From an uncultured Gemmatimonadales bacterium (GTDB lineage Bacteria; Gemmatimonadota; Gemmatimonadetes; Gemmatimonadales; Gemmatimonadaceae), in assembly GCA_963707505.1 (NCBI GenBank), contig CAVPQB010000006.1, positions 576,001-640,000 on the forward strand: 64,000 nucleotides of DNA. The letters run 5' to 3'. Shown piece after piece: positions 4,460 to 28,606 of the stretch. How positions within the stretch are numbered: position 1 is the first letter of the stretch; the number at the start of each line of letters is the position of its first letter. The position numbers were made by a program, and so were the translations under genes. Under the pieces are notes generated by a model. It was not told the origin of the DNA and searched no databases. It saw only the letters and a list, made by a program, of their open reading frames with translations.

Positions 4460-4517
4460 GAGTTACCTACCTGACTCTATGACCGGACTGTTCTAACCCC
4501 CTTGTCGGAGACTTTTG

Positions 4518-5093
4518 ATGTTTGCAACTACAAAAGATGACGCCGGATCTACTGCGGCCAAGCTGGCCGGTACGTGGAAGATCGATCCTGCGCATTCGGG
4601 AGTCGAGTTCGTCGTCACTCACCTCATGATATCGAAGGTCCGGGGTCGGTTTTCGGACATTTCCGGGTCTGTCGTGACCGACGGCACGCCGGAGGGATCG
4701 CGGATCGAGGCGGAGATCGGCACGGCCAGCATCACGACCAATGATGCGGGGCGAGACACGCATCTTCGGTCGGGGGACTTCTTTGATGTGGAGAAATTTC
4801 CGAAGATCCGGTTCGTAAGCACCGCCGTGAAGCCGACCGGGGACAACGAGTTCGTGGTAACGGGGGATCTGACGATCCGCGGCGTTACGCGCCAGGTCGA
4901 GATGAAGGTTACCAGCGAGGGGTCCACGAAGGACCCGTGGGGTAACGACAGGGCCGGATTCAGCGGGTCGCTCAAGATAGACAGGCGCGACTTTGGCCTC
5001 ATCTGGAATCAGGCGCTGGAGGCTGGCGGGGTCATGGTATCGAACGACGTGAGGCTGACGATAGACGTCGAGCTCACGCATGCGCCGCAATAG
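4518..5093 (+). CDS. YceI family polyisoprenoid-binding protein
   Basis: WKIDPAHS, RDTHLRSGDFFD, GDLTIRGVT, DPWGNDRAGF, IDRRDFG. Confidence 0.93.
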   Translation: MFATTKDDAGSTAAKLAGTWKIDPAHSGVEFVVTHLMISKVRGRFSDISGSVVTDGTPEGSRIEAEIGTASITTNDAGRDTHLRSGDFFDVEKFPKIRFVSTAVKPTGDNEFVVTGDLTIRGVTRQVEMKVTSEGSTKDPWGNDRAGFSGSLKIDRRDFGLIWNQALEAGGVMVSNDVRLTIDVELTHAPQ

Positions 5094-5175
5094 AGTCGCT
5101 ATGTAGCACGGATTTTGCCCCCTTTCTGGTTCGCGAGGCCAATACGGCAGACAGCGAACCAGAGAGGTGGTAATC

Positions 5176-5799
5176 ATGGTACGTGGGACCAGAAGCAGCG
5201 CATTTGCGGTCGCGCTCTGCGCGGTGACGATGCTCGGAGCCTGCAAGAAGGGGAATGAGGCGACCGATACGACCATGGCCGGCGCCGGCACCACAGACAC
5301 GTCGATGGCTGCCGGCACGGGATCGAGCACGTCGATGAAAGCGCCAGCCGCGACCATGACGGACGCGCAGATCTTCGCGATGTTGGCGGCAGCCAACCGG
5401 GGCGAGATCGACGCCGGCAAGATGGCGTCGACCAAGGCGACCAATGCATCGGTCAGGTCGTTCGCGCGCGATATGGTGACGGCGCATACCAAGATGCTGA
5501 ACGATGGCAACGCGCTGGCCAAGAAACTCAACATCACGCCTGACACGACGGCGGCCGATTCCATCAACGCGATGAATCAGTCCACTGCGGCGACGCTGTC
5601 GTCAACGGCGAAGGGTGCGGCGTTCGATTCGGCGTACGTGAACGCGCAGGTAGCGGGGCACGAGTACGTGCTCGACATGATCAAGCGCGCGGAAGGGCAG
5701 GCGCAGAACGCGGACCTCAAATCAGCTCTGACGTCGGCGGAGCCCCAGGTTCAGCAGCACCTGGACCGAATCAAGGACATTCAGAGCAAGCTGAAATAG
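5176..5799 (+). CDS. DUF4142 domain lipoprotein
   Basis: Lipobox LGAC; EIDAGKMA...VRSFARDMVTAH; FDSAYVNAQVAGH. Confidence 0.85.
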   Translation: MVRGTRSSAFAVALCAVTMLGACKKGNEATDTTMAGAGTTDTSMAAGTGSSTSMKAPAATMTDAQIFAMLAAANRGEIDAGKMASTKATNASVRSFARDMVTAHTKMLNDGNALAKKLNITPDTTAADSINAMNQSTAATLSSTAKGAAFDSAYVNAQVAGHEYVLDMIKRAEGQAQNADLKSALTSAEPQVQQHLDRIKDIQSKLK

Positions 5800-5839
5800 C
5801 ACCTCGCGGGCGCGACATCGATCGCGTATTTCTGGACGG

Positions 5840-5871
5840 AGTGGAGCGTCGCTCGAGAGCGACGCTCCACT
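5840..5871. repeat. Perfect hairpin downstream of the DUF4142 gene (terminator-like or REP-like)
   Basis: agtggagcgtcgctc-ga-gagcgacgctccact. Confidence 0.7.
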
Positions 5872-5998
5872 ATCTGGTCGCCGCGATGCGGGCGACGCAG
5901 ACGACGGAGTTGCAGTATCTGATCCAGCGAACGGCGCCGGTGTTTCTGAACGACATGGACCGCGCACAGGTGCTCAGGGGAAAACTCTGAGAGTTTAG

Positions 5999-7002
5999 GG
6001 GGTCAGGTCTTGCCCCGTGCGCCGCACCCAGTCGTTGCAGGTTTTCGCTACACGTGGCGTGGATATCACCGCGCACGCAATGGGCCATCGGCGACATCGT
6101 GATGGTCATGTCCAGACCATTGCGTCTTCAATTTCCCGGCGCTCTCTATCACATCACATCGCGTGGAGACGGCCGGGAGCCGATATACCTCGACGACAGC
6201 GATCGAACCGAGTTCCTCGCGATCCTGTCGCGCGTCAGCGAGCGGTACGGTTGGTCATGCCACAGTTACTGTCTCATGACCAACCACTATCACCTACTGA
6301 TGGAAACGCACGCGGCCACTCTTGCGCGCGGCATGCGGGACCTGAACGGTGTGTATACGCAGCGCTTCAACCGTGCACATGGGCGCGTCGGCCACGTGTA
6401 CCAGGGGCGCTACTCAGCCGTCCTCGTGCAGAAGGAGCGGCATCTTCTCGAGGTACTGCGATACATCGTGTTGAATCCGGTGCGTGCGCAGATGGTGTCC
6501 GATGCCGCGGACTGGCCCTGGAGCAGCTATCGCGCGGCGCTTGGCCTGGTATCGTCGCCGCCATGGCTACTGACGGATCGACTTGCTGCGATCTTCGGCA
6601 ACGGTGCAGAGGGAAGGCGCCAGTTCACACGTTTTGTGGAGGATGGTGTGGGCGGCCCATCCTGCTGGCGGAATCTCAAAGGTCAGATCTATCTCGGAGA
6701 TCCGGGCTTCGTCTCGGAAGCGCAGGGGCGTATCGCTGCCGACGCACCCGGCATGAGCGAAGTACCTGAGGTGCAGCGACGTCGTCGCCATGCGCCGAGC
6801 GAGCGATGGGAAGAGCATTACCCCGTGTACCGCAACCGGGCAGACCGGGACCGGGCGATCGTTGATGCGTTCACGGATGTGTCGATGAGTGGCGGCAACA
6901 CCATGCGCGCAATTGCGGAACACTTTGGTATCCATTACTCGCGCGTGAGCCGGATCATAAGCAACGCAGAGCGAGCGCGCGCACGGGGCAAGACCTGACC
7001 CC
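5999..7002 (+). mobile_element. RAYT element bounded by perfect 24-bp terminal inverted repeats
   Basis: ggggtcaggtcttgccccgtgcgc (5999-6022) and gcgcacggggcaagacctgacccc (6979-7002) enclose the transposase; its stop codon lies inside the right repeat. Confidence 0.85.
6108..6998 (+). CDS. REP-associated tyrosine transposase (RAYT/TnpA-REP, HUH Y1) with C-terminal HTH
   Basis: MSRPLR..PGALYHITSRG, CLMTNHYHLL (HUH), YIVLNPVRA, WPWSSY; C-terminal MRAIAEHFGIHYSRVSRII. Confidence 0.92.
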   Translation: MSRPLRLQFPGALYHITSRGDGREPIYLDDSDRTEFLAILSRVSERYGWSCHSYCLMTNHYHLLMETHAATLARGMRDLNGVYTQRFNRAHGRVGHVYQGRYSAVLVQKERHLLEVLRYIVLNPVRAQMVSDAADWPWSSYRAALGLVSSPPWLLTDRLAAIFGNGAEGRRQFTRFVEDGVGGPSCWRNLKGQIYLGDPGFVSEAQGRIAADAPGMSEVPEVQRRRRHAPSERWEEHYPVYRNRADRDRAIVDAFTDVSMSGGNTMRAIAEHFGIHYSRVSRIISNAERARARGKT

Positions 7003-7037
7003 GCTACTCTATGCACCCCGCCAGGGACTCCATATGA

Positions 7038-9962
7038 TCATCGTCGTTCGCCCTTCCCGTCAGCTTCAACCGCTCCCGCTGCTCCCGCCCTCCTCGGATC
7101 GGCACCCGCGGTTACAGTCCTGTCACTGAACGTGATCGCAGCGGCGTAGCCCATCCGGAGCTCGCCCGGTAGCGAGATGAAGCGGAGATGGTGACCGAAT
7201 CGTTCTAGACCACGATCGACACTCGGCGCAAATCCATCCTCCAGCTCCACCACGAAGTCGCTGCGATTGCCAACGCGCTCGCGCGAAAGAAGGAAACGGG
7301 GAAGCTCGATGGCGCGTTGAACGTCAAGCTTCTGATCCAGCACTCCCTCGACGATGCTGTATACAGCGGACGTGATCCACGAGTTGCCTGCGGCGCCAGC
7401 CGCAAGCACCGGACGAAGCTTAGCGCCGGATCCCTTGAAGACGATCGTAGGCGCAAGCGTGCTGCCGTTGCGAGCATACGGTGCGCGACCTCCGAACGCG
7501 GCGCTGTCGCTGCCGTACGACGTGACCTTGTCGTTGTAGAGGAAGCCGAGTCCCGGTGACACGTAGAAGTTCCCGCCCCAGGTGCCGAGCGTCTGCGTCA
7601 CAGCAACGACATTGCCATCTGCATCACCGACCGTGAATGCGGTGGTGCCTGTGCGGTGACAGTCTCGCTCGCCATCTTCGGCGTCCGTGCCGCCACATTC
7701 CGCTGCAACCGTGCTACCCACATCCGCTCCACTTTGCTTACCGCCACTGTCGCTCGCTGCACTGCCTGAACTATCACTCGCAGCCGCACCAGTGCGTGCC
7801 TTTGCGCACTTCGGCGTGTCACCGCTCAGCTCGTTGCTCGTGAGCGCGCGCTGCGCATCGAAGCAATTCCATCGTGCACGCGCACTGTCCTTGCTCGTGA
7901 ACGCGCTGATGTTGACCGGCCAGAGGCCGGGATCTGCGATGCGGTTGCGCGCCGATGGAACGAGCTTCCACGCTTCGATCATCGCGTGCACGGTGGCCGC
8001 ATCTTCAGTATATGACGGGAGCCGCGGCAAACGCTCGAGCATGTTGAGTTGCGCAACGAGTGTCGCGCCGCCCGAAACTGGAGGCGCGCTCGAGTAAACA
8101 GTAAAGCCGCGGTAACTCCCCGCAACCGGCTCGCGCTCGGCTGCATAATAGCGCATGAGATCACTCATGCGCATCGCATTTCCGTGTCCGCGCAGATCGG
8201 CAACCATCCGCTGGCCGACGGCCCCGCGGTACACTGCATTGGCGCCGCTGTCGGCAATCTGCTTGAGTGACCATGCGAGATCGGGATTGCGGAGCGTATC
8301 GCCGGCGTGGAGTGGCTCGCCATTACGGAAGAAAAGCTTGCGGCTTCCCTCGTACTTGAGGAAGTGCTCTCGCTCCGTCGCGAGCGTGGTGGCAAGACCA
8401 TCGCTCACGACGTATCCGTTCGTAGCGGCACGAATCGCGGGCGCGACGAGATCGGCCCAGGTCACCTTGTGACTTCCGTATTCCTTCCACGCCTTGTGCA
8501 TCCCCGCGATCGTGCCCGGTACATTCGGGAGCACCGGGCCATCATCGGGATATCCGCCATCGGAGAGTATCGCGTGCTCGTTGGTGAGGACGTCCTGCGG
8601 CAGCCGCGTCATGAACTCGATGACGACCGGGCGCGGCATCGAGTCGAGCCGGATGAGCATCTCGCCGTATCCGCCGATCCCGCTCGCATCGGGCTCTACG
8701 ACGCCGAGTGCAAACGACACCGCTACGGCGGCGTCGACAACATTTCCACCCTTTCGCAGGATCTCGAGACCAGCCTCCGTGGCAACCGGATTGGCGCTCG
8801 AGACAGCAGCGTGTCCGGTGGCTGGTTCGCGCAGCGGCGGACGGCGCAACAACATCTCGTGCACGACCTTCGCGAGATCATCGTCGGACTTCGCCGCGAG
8901 CGCGTGCGGACGAAAAGTATCGCGGAGTGTCTCCCACTGCGCGTGACGCGATGCCGCATCCGGAGTCGAGTAATACAATCGTGCCGTGCGCTGCCACGCC
9001 GCATCGAATTGGGCAGCATTGCGATCGCGACGATCCACCGCGATCGTCAGCTTGGCGGAGTTTCCACTGTCGGGCGCGGGCGGTGCAGACACGTACCACA
9101 GCGCACCCGCGTCCTTCGGCACCGAGCCAGCCGCGCGATCACCCAGACGGTCGGGATCGCCGTTGTAGCCAGGCGGTGGTGGTGGGAGCTCGACGAGGGC
9201 GAGAGTGCTTCCGTTGGGCGACCACGATGGCGCAGCGCGTCGCGCGCTGACGAGATTCACGTAATCATTTTCCGGCGTGGTGACCCAGACACCGGCCGGC
9301 CCGCTCCTCGTGCCGAATGCGAGTCTGCGTCCGTCCGGTGACCATGCTGGATGCTCGACGTCGCGGTTGCTCACGACAGTGTAGGTGGAATCGCCATGCA
9401 GCAGGGAAATGCGAAGTGTTCGGCCTTTCTCCGTGATCGCCACGAACGCGAGCTGCTTGCCGTCCGGCGCGAACGCTGGCCAGCCCTCGGCGCCTGTCTT
9501 CGACTTGGTGAGGCGTCGCTCGTGTCCATCTGGCGAGCGAAGGTAGATTCGCGCTGTGGGGCCACTGCCGCGGACAAAGGCCAGCGTGCCGTCCGCCGCG
9601 AGTGCGGGGCTGCTCTCCCAGGTGTCGGAATCGGTCACGCGCTGCGGAGCACTCGCTGCCCCGTTTCCTGCGGCGCCGAGCCGCACCCTGTAGAGTCGGG
9701 AGCCGCCATCACGATTGGATGCGAATATCAGGGAGTTGCCGTCCGCGCTCCACGCGGGATCGCGATCCCATGCCGCTCCCGAAGTGATCTGGATCCAGCT
9801 CGTGGTGTCACGCGGAGAGCGCTGCACCCAGATGTCACCGTCGATAGCCAGTGCGAGCCGGCCGTCCGGCCCATACGCCGCGTCCTGTACGCCGCTGGTC
9901 GGCGAGCCGGTACTGACCACGGTCTGGAGGACGAGCAACATGGCTGCGAGCGGAAACATCAC
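7038..9962 (-). CDS. Exported PD40/TolB-like beta-propeller fused to a gamma-glutamyltransferase (Ntn-hydrolase) domain
   Basis: Signal peptide; PAWSADG/PAFAPDG/PAWSPDG repeats; GGNVVDAAVAVSFALGVVEPDASGIGG; GTTAFTVGDADGN; GADPRR. Confidence 0.85.
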   Translation of the reverse strand: MMFPLAAMLLVLQTVVSTGSPTSGVQDAAYGPDGRLALAIDGDIWVQRSPRDTTSWIQITSGAAWDRDPAWSADGNSLIFASNRDGGSRLYRVRLGAAGNGAASAPQRVTDSDTWESSPALAADGTLAFVRGSGPTARIYLRSPDGHERRLTKSKTGAEGWPAFAPDGKQLAFVAITEKGRTLRISLLHGDSTYTVVSNRDVEHPAWSPDGRRLAFGTRSGPAGVWVTTPENDYVNLVSARRAAPSWSPNGSTLALVELPPPPPGYNGDPDRLGDRAAGSVPKDAGALWYVSAPPAPDSGNSAKLTIAVDRRDRNAAQFDAAWQRTARLYYSTPDAASRHAQWETLRDTFRPHALAAKSDDDLAKVVHEMLLRRPPLREPATGHAAVSSANPVATEAGLEILRKGGNVVDAAVAVSFALGVVEPDASGIGGYGEMLIRLDSMPRPVVIEFMTRLPQDVLTNEHAILSDGGYPDDGPVLPNVPGTIAGMHKAWKEYGSHKVTWADLVAPAIRAATNGYVVSDGLATTLATEREHFLKYEGSRKLFFRNGEPLHAGDTLRNPDLAWSLKQIADSGANAVYRGAVGQRMVADLRGHGNAMRMSDLMRYYAAEREPVAGSYRGFTVYSSAPPVSGGATLVAQLNMLERLPRLPSYTEDAATVHAMIEAWKLVPSARNRIADPGLWPVNISAFTSKDSARARWNCFDAQRALTSNELSGDTPKCAKARTGAAASDSSGSAASDSGGKQSGADVGSTVAAECGGTDAEDGERDCHRTGTTAFTVGDADGNVVAVTQTLGTWGGNFYVSPGLGFLYNDKVTSYGSDSAAFGGRAPYARNGSTLAPTIVFKGSGAKLRPVLAAGAAGNSWITSAVYSIVEGVLDQKLDVQRAIELPRFLLSRERVGNRSDFVVELEDGFAPSVDRGLERFGHHLRFISLPGELRMGYAAAITFSDRTVTAGADPRRAGAAGAVEADGKGERR

Positions 9963-9985: not shown

Positions 9986-10081
9986 GGGGTCAGGTCTTGC
10001 GCCGTGCGCGGTCAAACGCGCGCGCGGTTTAGCGAAACACTGCAATGGCCGGGAGCGGCGCACGGCGCAAGACCTGACCCC
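9986..10081. mobile_element. 96-bp non-autonomous (MITE/REPIN-like) derivative of the RAYT element
   Basis: 24-bp arms at 9986-10009 and 10058-10081, one base different from the RAYT TIR; reverse complement of 10030-10081 matches 5999-6050 at 45/52 nt. Confidence 0.85.
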
Positions 10082-12954: not shown

Positions 12955-13006
12955 GAAACACTGGGCGGCATCCGCGGCTCCAGCCGCAGATGCCGCCCAG
13001 TGTTTC
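12955..13006. terminator. Long hairpin between convergent genes (bidirectional terminator candidate)
   Basis: gaaacactgggcggcatc / gatgccgcccagtgtttc (18 bp perfect) plus inner gcggct/agccgc. Confidence 0.7.
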
Positions 13007-28536: not shown

Positions 28537-28558
28537 GCGTGTTGCGGAGGCGGCTTGC

Positions 28559-28596
28559 GGGTCAGGTCTTGCCCCGCAACGGGCAAGACCTGACCC
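28559..28596. repeat. Minimal hairpin made of the RAYT TIR core
   Basis: gggtcaggtcttgccc-cgcaac-gggcaagacctgaccc; 16-bp perfect stem identical to the TIR core. Confidence 0.88.
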
Positions 28597-28606
28597 CAAT
28601 CACTCG

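Follow-up and report, generated by a model that had tools for sequence, protein, structure and literature searches.

A single-copy TIRtron in a Gemmatimonadaceae genome and a predicted cut site outside its terminal inverted repeats

The element and its surroundings

The window analyzed here is a 64,000-nt stretch of DNA from an uncultured Gemmatimonadales bacterium; plain coordinates are positions in this window, the focal genome is labelled G000, and contigs are labelled C1, C6 and so on. The window contains a 1004-bp unit framed by terminal inverted repeats (TIRs) whose two 24-nt arms (5999-6022 and 6979-7002) are 100% complementary. They form the longest of 38 inverted pairs in a scan of positions 4500-8500, which confirms the perfect TIRs described in the initial annotation. 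The sequence at the TIR tip, GGGGTCAG, fits the consensus GGGGWSAS, and a 14-mer of the TIR, allowing up to two mismatches, matches six times in the window against 0.35 matches expected from shuffles. The features of the element and of its nearby derivatives are as follows.

5989-5998 (+): predicted left nick zone on the top strand, 6-10 nt outside the tip, as suggested by scars and copy boundaries
5999-6022 (+): left TIR, 24 bp, with a GGGGWSAS tip and a core, TCAGGTCT, that recurs across phyla
6023-6077 (+): left subterminal segment, retained in the 96-bp and 168-bp derivatives (element nt 1-79 against derivatives, 77-84%)
6108-6998 (+): TIRYT ORF, encoding a RAYT-type HUH/Y1 transposase of 296 aa, with its stop in the right TIR
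6285-6293 (+): HUH motif H60-Y61-H62
6462-6464 (+): Y119, the predicted catalytic tyrosine, in an RYIVLNP motif 59 residues after H60
6888-6977 (+): C-terminal helix-turn-helix (HTH), predicted to bind the TIR
6979-7002 (-): right TIR, 24 bp, overlapping the end of the ORF
7003-7012 (-): predicted right nick zone on the bottom strand, placed by symmetry
9986-10081 (-): 96-bp non-autonomous derivative, consisting of the left end and a second TIR
28558-28597 (no strand assigned): 40-bp TIR-TIR hairpin derivative

The reading frame ends K-T-stop within the right TIR, as first annotated, and its M1 is invariant among 108 homologues; another in-frame ATG lies at 6102. N59-H60-Y61-H62 and R118-Y119 are likewise invariant in 108 of 108 aligned proteins, and the annotated HUH and tyrosine motifs are intact. 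The spacing of 59 residues between H60 and Y119 lies within the range of 58-67 given in the part of Quentin 2018 (10.1101/279083) available to us. The protein matches Pfam Y1_Tnp above the cut-off (E=7.9e-12) and NCBIfam NF047646, REP_Tyr_transpos, at 86.9 bits against a cut-off of 80; its Pfam matches are limited to Y1_Tnp and HTH, with no DDE domain. The extra C-terminal HTH is confirmed by matches to HTH_28 (E=3.8e-4) and HTH_23 (E=6e-4) at residues ~261-290, both under their curated cut-offs, together with an AlphaFold model (pLDDT 85) in which helices 266-273 and 277-294 make up a C-terminal two-helix unit. This region also gives weak LacI-headpiece matches (E 0.3-0.5). From the domain type and the conservation of the TIR core, we infer that the HTH binds the duplex TIR. 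The best PDB match of the model is E. coli TnpA-REP (4ER8), followed by the TnpA proteins of ISDra2 and IS608. The closest named homologue comes from a Gemmatimonadaceae MAG, and homologues are widespread, with 7898 of 8000 scored candidates matching at E 1e-30.

An unannotated ORF of 34 codons (5886-5990, +) ends 8 nt before the left TIR, is preceded by a perfect 15-bp hairpin (5840-5871), and has counterparts of 34-42 aa with a stop in register at 14 of 19 orthologous loci. The region of this ORF has no Rfam match, nor does a scan of 5700-7150, and a sigma-70 promoter scan found none. After the ORF comes a terminator-like hairpin (5961-5998) whose 3' arm has been lost from the three sequences with the full element (G000, its congener G014 and the metagenome contig L196) but not from the related genomes G015 and G016 or from most other congeners. 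To the right, the element is adjoined by a gene for a 974-aa fusion of PD40 repeats, Tricorn C1 and gamma-glutamyltranspeptidase (7038-9962, -).

Copies, derivatives and orthologous sites

The G000 assembly (3.66 Mb, 83% complete) holds one copy of the full-length element and 28 exact matches to the TIR 14-mer. These ends make up 13 paired gene-less elements of 40-169 bp, plus five broken or solo ends, and the derivatives fall into size classes of 40-46, 96-97 and 166-169 bp. The 96-bp class retains the left end, and the 168-bp class retains both ends, including the HTH-coding tail. The initial annotation saw in the focal element the autonomous member of a family that has seeded copies in this genome. 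What stands is that it carries the sole intact transposase of a TIR family with dispersed derivatives, as the genome-wide count attests; there is no second full copy in the 83% complete assembly, and the seeded copies, ~78-92% identical to the focal element ends, are all non-autonomous. Near-identical full copies of this class are present within other single genomes; a 995-bp unit at locus L175, considered as a full element, was rejected as a mis-pairing of derivatives.

The copies are regionally clustered: contigs C6 and C1 account for 28% of the bases and for 17 of 18 TIR sites (up to one mismatch). This may reflect local hopping or regional tolerance. The position of dnaA, at C6:301.6 kb, and a weak GC skew lend no support to clustering at the replication terminus. 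In the genome G003, all 12 pattern matches lie on one (C2) of ~30 contigs, the contig that bears that genome's full element.

The full element occupies the same site in G014 and in L196, a decayed remnant of the 168-bp type is found there in G015, and G016 has no recognisable TIR at the site. The picture of a mobile, IS-like full element is not supported in this genome, and the comparison with related genomes for empty sites found no clean empty allele. As originally noted, no target-site duplication (TSD) is visible: it amounts to 1 nt at the focal element and 0-2 nt in 79 of 82 family elements, and offset direct repeats at family ends are at null level, none above. The left junctions differ among all three full copies. 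In G000 the 7 nt at 5992-5998 are extra and unaligned with the G016 orthologue; they could possibly have originated by fold-back, as 5992-5996 complement 5983-5987, but this is a single case and a carried flank accounts for the extra nucleotides equally well. The left flank of G014 groups with that of G016. Between G014 and L196 the element is 88.0% identical and the flank 85.6%, whereas between G000 and G014 the element is 83.5% identical and the flank 91.7%. Because the relationships of element and flank disagree, the orthologous site has likely been reworked or re-occupied, although recombination within the genus could also explain the pattern.

The apparent stability of the gene raises the alternative of a domesticated RAYT/REPIN-like function, inherited vertically and kept for a host benefit, in which the protein nicks and maintains the miniature repeats and its gene seldom moves. 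The single copy in G000, the site common to G000, G014 and L196, the excess of synonymous over non-synonymous codon differences between G000 and G014 (63 against 48) and the near absence of the family from plasmids (1 of 72,556 records) and phages (0 of 50,697) all fit this idea. Low RAYT duplication, as given in the available part of Bertels 2017, fits as well, though duplication there is highest (6.2%) in group 1. Against this stand the patchy distribution (3 of 401 phylum genomes match at E 1e-40), the discordance of element and flank, the decay in G015 and absence in G016, and copies that are 95-99.9% identical within single genomes elsewhere. A 60%-identical transposase also sits at a second insertion site in G003, on which the second-site claim rests; the unpublished genome G017 has that site too. 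We regard domestication as quite unlikely, and it would in any case be compatible with the nick model set out below. The focal element itself resembles a self-copying IS less than it does a stationary, single-copy driver of miniature elements, and we infer that across this genus the gene moves little and maintains the 40-170 bp derivatives in trans.

Orthologous intergenic sites carry elements that differ in size and orientation from strain to strain, as at C6:503258, with elements of 46, 89, 96 and reversed 96 bp. At 10 sites with a TIR-less orthologue (flanks 70-99% identical), 8-117 nt of other DNA stands in the element's place, never a TSD, and some of these alleles bear scars of older repeats; none of the TIR-less orthologues compared is a clean naive site. 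In L198, with flanks 98-99% identical to G000, a fresh 50-bp element stands where G000 and G015 have a decayed TIR-like hairpin in common. Several orthologous sites have just 0-3 extra nt between the TIR and target-like DNA. Targeting of hairpins as a general rule was rejected, as 3 of 10 replaced segments fold with z < -2 against 13% of 60 random 80-mers. No joint skipping the element was found in the contigs of four runs, which contained at most 25% of the words.

A 52-nt hairpin between convergent genes (12955-13006) shows compensatory differences between G000 and G015/G016, and is replaced by a TIR-TIR hairpin of 60 or 62 bp in G014 (L099) and L206, possibly twice independently. At a G000 C1 site orthologous to L210, the TIR-less allele consists of short GGGAC-containing tandem repeats that look like scars left by a different TIR family. 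G000 also contains, outside the window (C6:766320-766790), a truncated remnant of a second TIRtron family, whose tips are AAACN-GGGGTCAGAG and which has full or miniature copies in congeners (L009, L010, L011, L018, L020).

Junction scars, carried flanks and a candidate mechanism

TIR ends of this class often carry a tandem scar, in which 6-10 nt of flank and a prefix of the TIR are followed by the same flank and the full TIR. In the focal family this inward duplication is found at 31 of 195 unique ends, a count in which ends within arrays and among kin are not independent samples, compared with 201 of 20000 positions taken at random and 38 of 3820 close by. The flank part of these scars spans 6-11 nt and is never 4-5 nt, and the TIR part is at most 8 nt in 30 of 31. 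Ends were de-duplicated by flank before counting, and those with less than 45-50 nt of flank were omitted. Loci of two unpublished genomes, G007 and G017, are included in the family denominators (84 elements, 195 ends); the full-element loci of these two, L003 and L005, account for none of the 31 scarred ends. Four scars lie in G000 (C6:776780, 786004, 786204 and 787461), and the focal element has no exact junction duplication.

The same footprint is found in other taxa, mostly Proteobacteria, where we collected 104 homologue loci, 85 of them with a countable TIR end. Scars are present at 61 of 181 ends and 45 of 85 loci (an initial subset gave 24 of 71), against 329 of 19706 nearby positions. 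Their flank range overlaps 6-10 nt in 50 of 61, and their prefix is at most 8 nt in 55 of 61, with a peak at 7 (GGGGTCA). A core of the TCAGGTCT type is present at both gene ends in 40 of 71 loci with room for it. Outward duplications are not enriched (5 of 195 ends, 3 of these within inward arrays, against 26 of 3820 control positions), so the polarity of the cut is fixed and a cut on the 3' side of the element was rejected. A survey of tip losses gave no clear inner cut position.

At locus L346, four TIR starts are arranged head to tail at spacings of 25, 838 and 56 nt, all behind the same flank, and L156 has a deletion of ~79 nt that ends 8-9 nt from the tip. Successive rounds whose outer edge shifts slightly could account for the arrays at L274, L223 and L240. 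A further array, L006 in G002, has five tandem TIR starts of an GGGGTCAGATCTTG variant, each behind the same 9-nt flank.

Scars of this kind might also be products of slippage during host replication, at TIR hairpins or G-runs, or of faulty assembly, and would then be uninformative about a cut site. TIR pairs can indeed form stable hairpins, and most loci come from metagenome assemblies and are known from contigs. However, GGGG runs outside TIRs in the other-taxa loci give duplications at just 28 of 2728, the flank part holds steady at 6-10 nt while the period runs from 7 to >40 nt, and microhomology at the junction is absent in 10 of 31 and 36 of 61 scars. Scars are also found in isolate genomes (e.g. 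L227, L244 and L255), and copy boundaries lie at the same distance from the tip, as described next. We judge slippage or misassembly to be very unlikely as the source of the footprint.

Where a genome contains full copies at least 95% identical to each other, their sequences agree for 6-8 nt past the tip at 5 of 6 comparable ends (7 nt in L309/L310, 8 in L248, 6 in L343, 7 in L341, and 8 with one mismatch in L349), the exception being L232/L235, with none in common; ends with a missing or degenerate tip in one copy (L260, L339/L340, L342) were omitted from this count. Among 12 same-genome comparisons, four lacked an alignment of 300 nt at 85%; two pairs ~91% identical and one pair 99% identical have no flank in common. 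In one genome a 3462-bp segment (L337:15319-18780 and L338) is duplicated at 99.94% identity, running from a second RAYT-like gene with another TIR type to 7 nt beyond a family TIR. Judging by such sequences, full elements of this class do get duplicated in some genomes, once inside this 3.46-kb segment. The segment is a composite unit with passenger DNA. Neighbouring miniature copies also have flank in common on their two sides (3 and 10 nt for C6:786004/787461 in G000, 6 and 8 nt in L179), whereas derivatives of different genomes with 92-98% internal identity have none. Carry-over of flank as a general rule was rejected, as it is seen only among neighbouring or very recent copies; given the flankless distant derivatives and the junctions with 0-3 extra nt, it is either not universal or later erased. 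The biochemical ends of the element probably lie ~7 nt outside the TIR tips.

In the family, the TIR pair of an element has common non-consensus bases at 17 positions and asymmetric ones at 29, and inverted-copy flanks of at least 5 nt are found in 6 of 82 elements against a null of 0.6%. These symmetric variants and inverted flanks suggest occasional copying of one end from the other, and they keep a panhandle model alive. At L208, L158, L113 and L188 the two flanks are inverted copies over 6 to at least 40 nt, possibly through end copying or, in the case of L208, as an artefact of assembly.

A panhandle would be the starting point for peel-and-paste transposition resembling that of IS200/IS605, in which same-strand TIRs anneal into a 24-bp stem, the enzyme cuts that strand to either side of the stem base, and an excised circle is reinserted. 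The fold similarity to TnpA-REP and to the IS608 and ISDra2 enzymes, the 40-62 bp derivatives that are pure hairpins, the hints that ends pair, and the flank in common on both sides of neighbouring copies are all consistent with it. We nevertheless consider it unlikely: no outward duplications mark a cut 3' of the element, orthologous sites show replacement and not precise insertion, and one-ended products exist. There is also no fixed cleavage dinucleotide or target motif, unlike the guide-directed cutting described in the accessible part of Corneloup 2021 (PMC8266576).

We lean instead, with modest confidence, towards a one-ended model drawn from these sequence comparisons, in which the HTH holds the TIR, the strand is nicked ~7-8 nt 5' of the GGGG tip, and the end is joined to an available 3'-OH. 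As stated in the same portion of Corneloup 2021 (PMC8266576), an HUH nick leaves a 5'-phosphotyrosine and a 3'-OH able to prime synthesis or attack the linkage. A constant outer and a variable inner scar edge are what such a nick predicts, since the 5' end stays on the tyrosine and the 3'-OH primes synthesis of variable length. No dinucleotide is fixed at the outer scar edge, so the cut is likely positioned by distance and not by a guide. The C-terminal HTH would likely bind the inverted repeat, and the GGGG-reading strand (top at the left end, bottom at the right) would likely be nicked ~7-8 nt (range 6-10) outside the tip. Each nicked end would then likely be joined separately, in a rolling-circle-like manner, to whatever DNA 3' end is available. 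Host polymerase might add a few bases to the 3'-OH and in most cases halt by TIR position 7-8, perhaps on meeting the bound protein; alternatively, the prefix peak at 7 could stem not from such a halt but from a second nick, made within the TIR. Short extension and re-joining would give the short tandem scar, long extension the larger head-to-tail duplications (as in L346), and joining to an upstream 3' end an adjacent deletion (as in L156). Joining at a distant site would relocate the element, or a miniature version of it, together with ~7 nt of donor flank, the second end likely being supplied by host repair or by copying from the first TIR.

Were this correct, copy-and-replace by TIRYTs would continually generate duplications and deletions nearby. 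Should no particular sequence be required at the cut, the enzyme would be a compact (<300 aa) nickase-ligase joining DNA that bears a TIR to free 3' ends. The scars predict the strand, polarity and distance of the nick concretely enough for an oligo assay to be designed, and because they place the cut in the flank, an assay on bare-TIR oligos could miss it. The main value of this work is this cut-site prediction; the seeding picture is valid for the miniature derivatives and not for the full element in G000.

Relation to known systems

The element is a TIRtron/TIRYT of Quentin's subclass 2.1, as assigned by its features, and its architecture is therefore already known; what our comparisons would add is the cut-site footprint, a testable mechanistic lead. 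Di Nocera, De Gregorio and Rocco 2013 (PMC3733652) coined TIRtron/TIRYT for such an arrangement, and in the part of their text available to us it comprises a RAYT-like gene between long TIRs with GGGGWSAS tips, a TIR overlapping the gene end, and a moderately abundant TIR family present as singles, dimers and clusters. The focal element likewise has a HUH and tyrosine transposase, long TIRs unrelated to GTAG REPs, the GGGGWSAS tip and a dispersed TIR family. That same part of the TIRtron text (PMC3733652) is without junction analysis, cut site, copy boundaries, derivative size classes or experiments. In the portion of Quentin 2018 (10.1101/279083) that we draw on, 20 of 26 TIRYTs fall in subclass 2.1, with a C-terminal HTH, and the role of the HTH and mobility are left open for this subclass. 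Subclass 2.1.2 is there described by a long protein with an HTH_23/HTH_28-like domain, an absence of REPs, GGGG[AT][CG]A[CG] repeats and a HUH-to-Tyr spacing of 59. The focal protein agrees, its C-terminal HTH (of the HTH_23, HTH_28 or Bac_DnaA_C-like kind) resting on the sub-cut-off matches and the model, so the subclass referred to in the initial annotation is borne out as TIRYT subclass 2.1, which corresponds to RAYT group 1 per Laurenceau. Our literature search, with most subscription papers outside its scope, found no experimental work on TIRYT enzymes, no cut-site footprint for TIRtrons and no relevant paper on a TIR 12-mer. How RAYT-type enzymes move DNA is described as an open question in the consulted part of Corneloup 2021 (PMC8266576).

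RAYT groups 2 and 3, with their REP/REPIN repeats, have the same HUH/Y1 core fold (PDB 4ER8), and the RAYT/REPIN system as characterized in the available portions of Bertels 2011, 2017 and 2022 resembles ours in its single-copy gene and dispersed paired repeats of ~100 bp. The focal protein differs in its extra HTH and in having 13 paired copies, not hundreds, and its gene is flanked by an untagged TIR pair; the GTAG-tagged palindromic REPs that flank REPtron genes of groups 2 and 3 are absent. Enzymes of these groups cut ssDNA at a guide-chosen C|T or C|A, according to the part of Corneloup 2021 at hand (PMC8266576), whereas the family scars point to a fixed distance and no fixed dinucleotide.

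IS200/IS605 elements such as IS608 and ISDra2 share the Y1 HUH fold and the lack of a TSD with the focal element. Their ends are dissimilar and have subterminal hairpins, their sites are selected by a guide, and their excision is precise. The focal TIRs, in contrast, are identical, no fixed target tetra- or pentanucleotide is found, and junctions are imprecise; the flank composition of the 195 ends is only weakly biased, with A rare at -1. The DDE transposase and TSD of a classical IS are both lacking at the focal element.

There are functional parallels with IS91/ISCR, Helitrons and Replitrons, which also give one-ended, 3'-OH-primed products with carried flank (the 'fuzzy ends' of Replitron-1) and differ in their Rep-class enzyme lineage, asymmetric ends and target specificity, as far as the available part of Craig 2022 (10.1101/2022.12.15.520654) describes them. 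This likeness to rolling-circle HUH transposons is one of function, not of membership. We tentatively propose, as a possibility that falls somewhat short of probable, that TIRYTs are a mechanistically distinct and very widespread HUH class, in which an HTH reads a double-stranded repeat, the nick is placed outside it by distance and without sequence, and transposition is a one-ended copy-and-replace. Such distance-measured, one-ended transposition would be unlike the hairpin-guided cutting of IS200/IS605 or RAYT enzymes.
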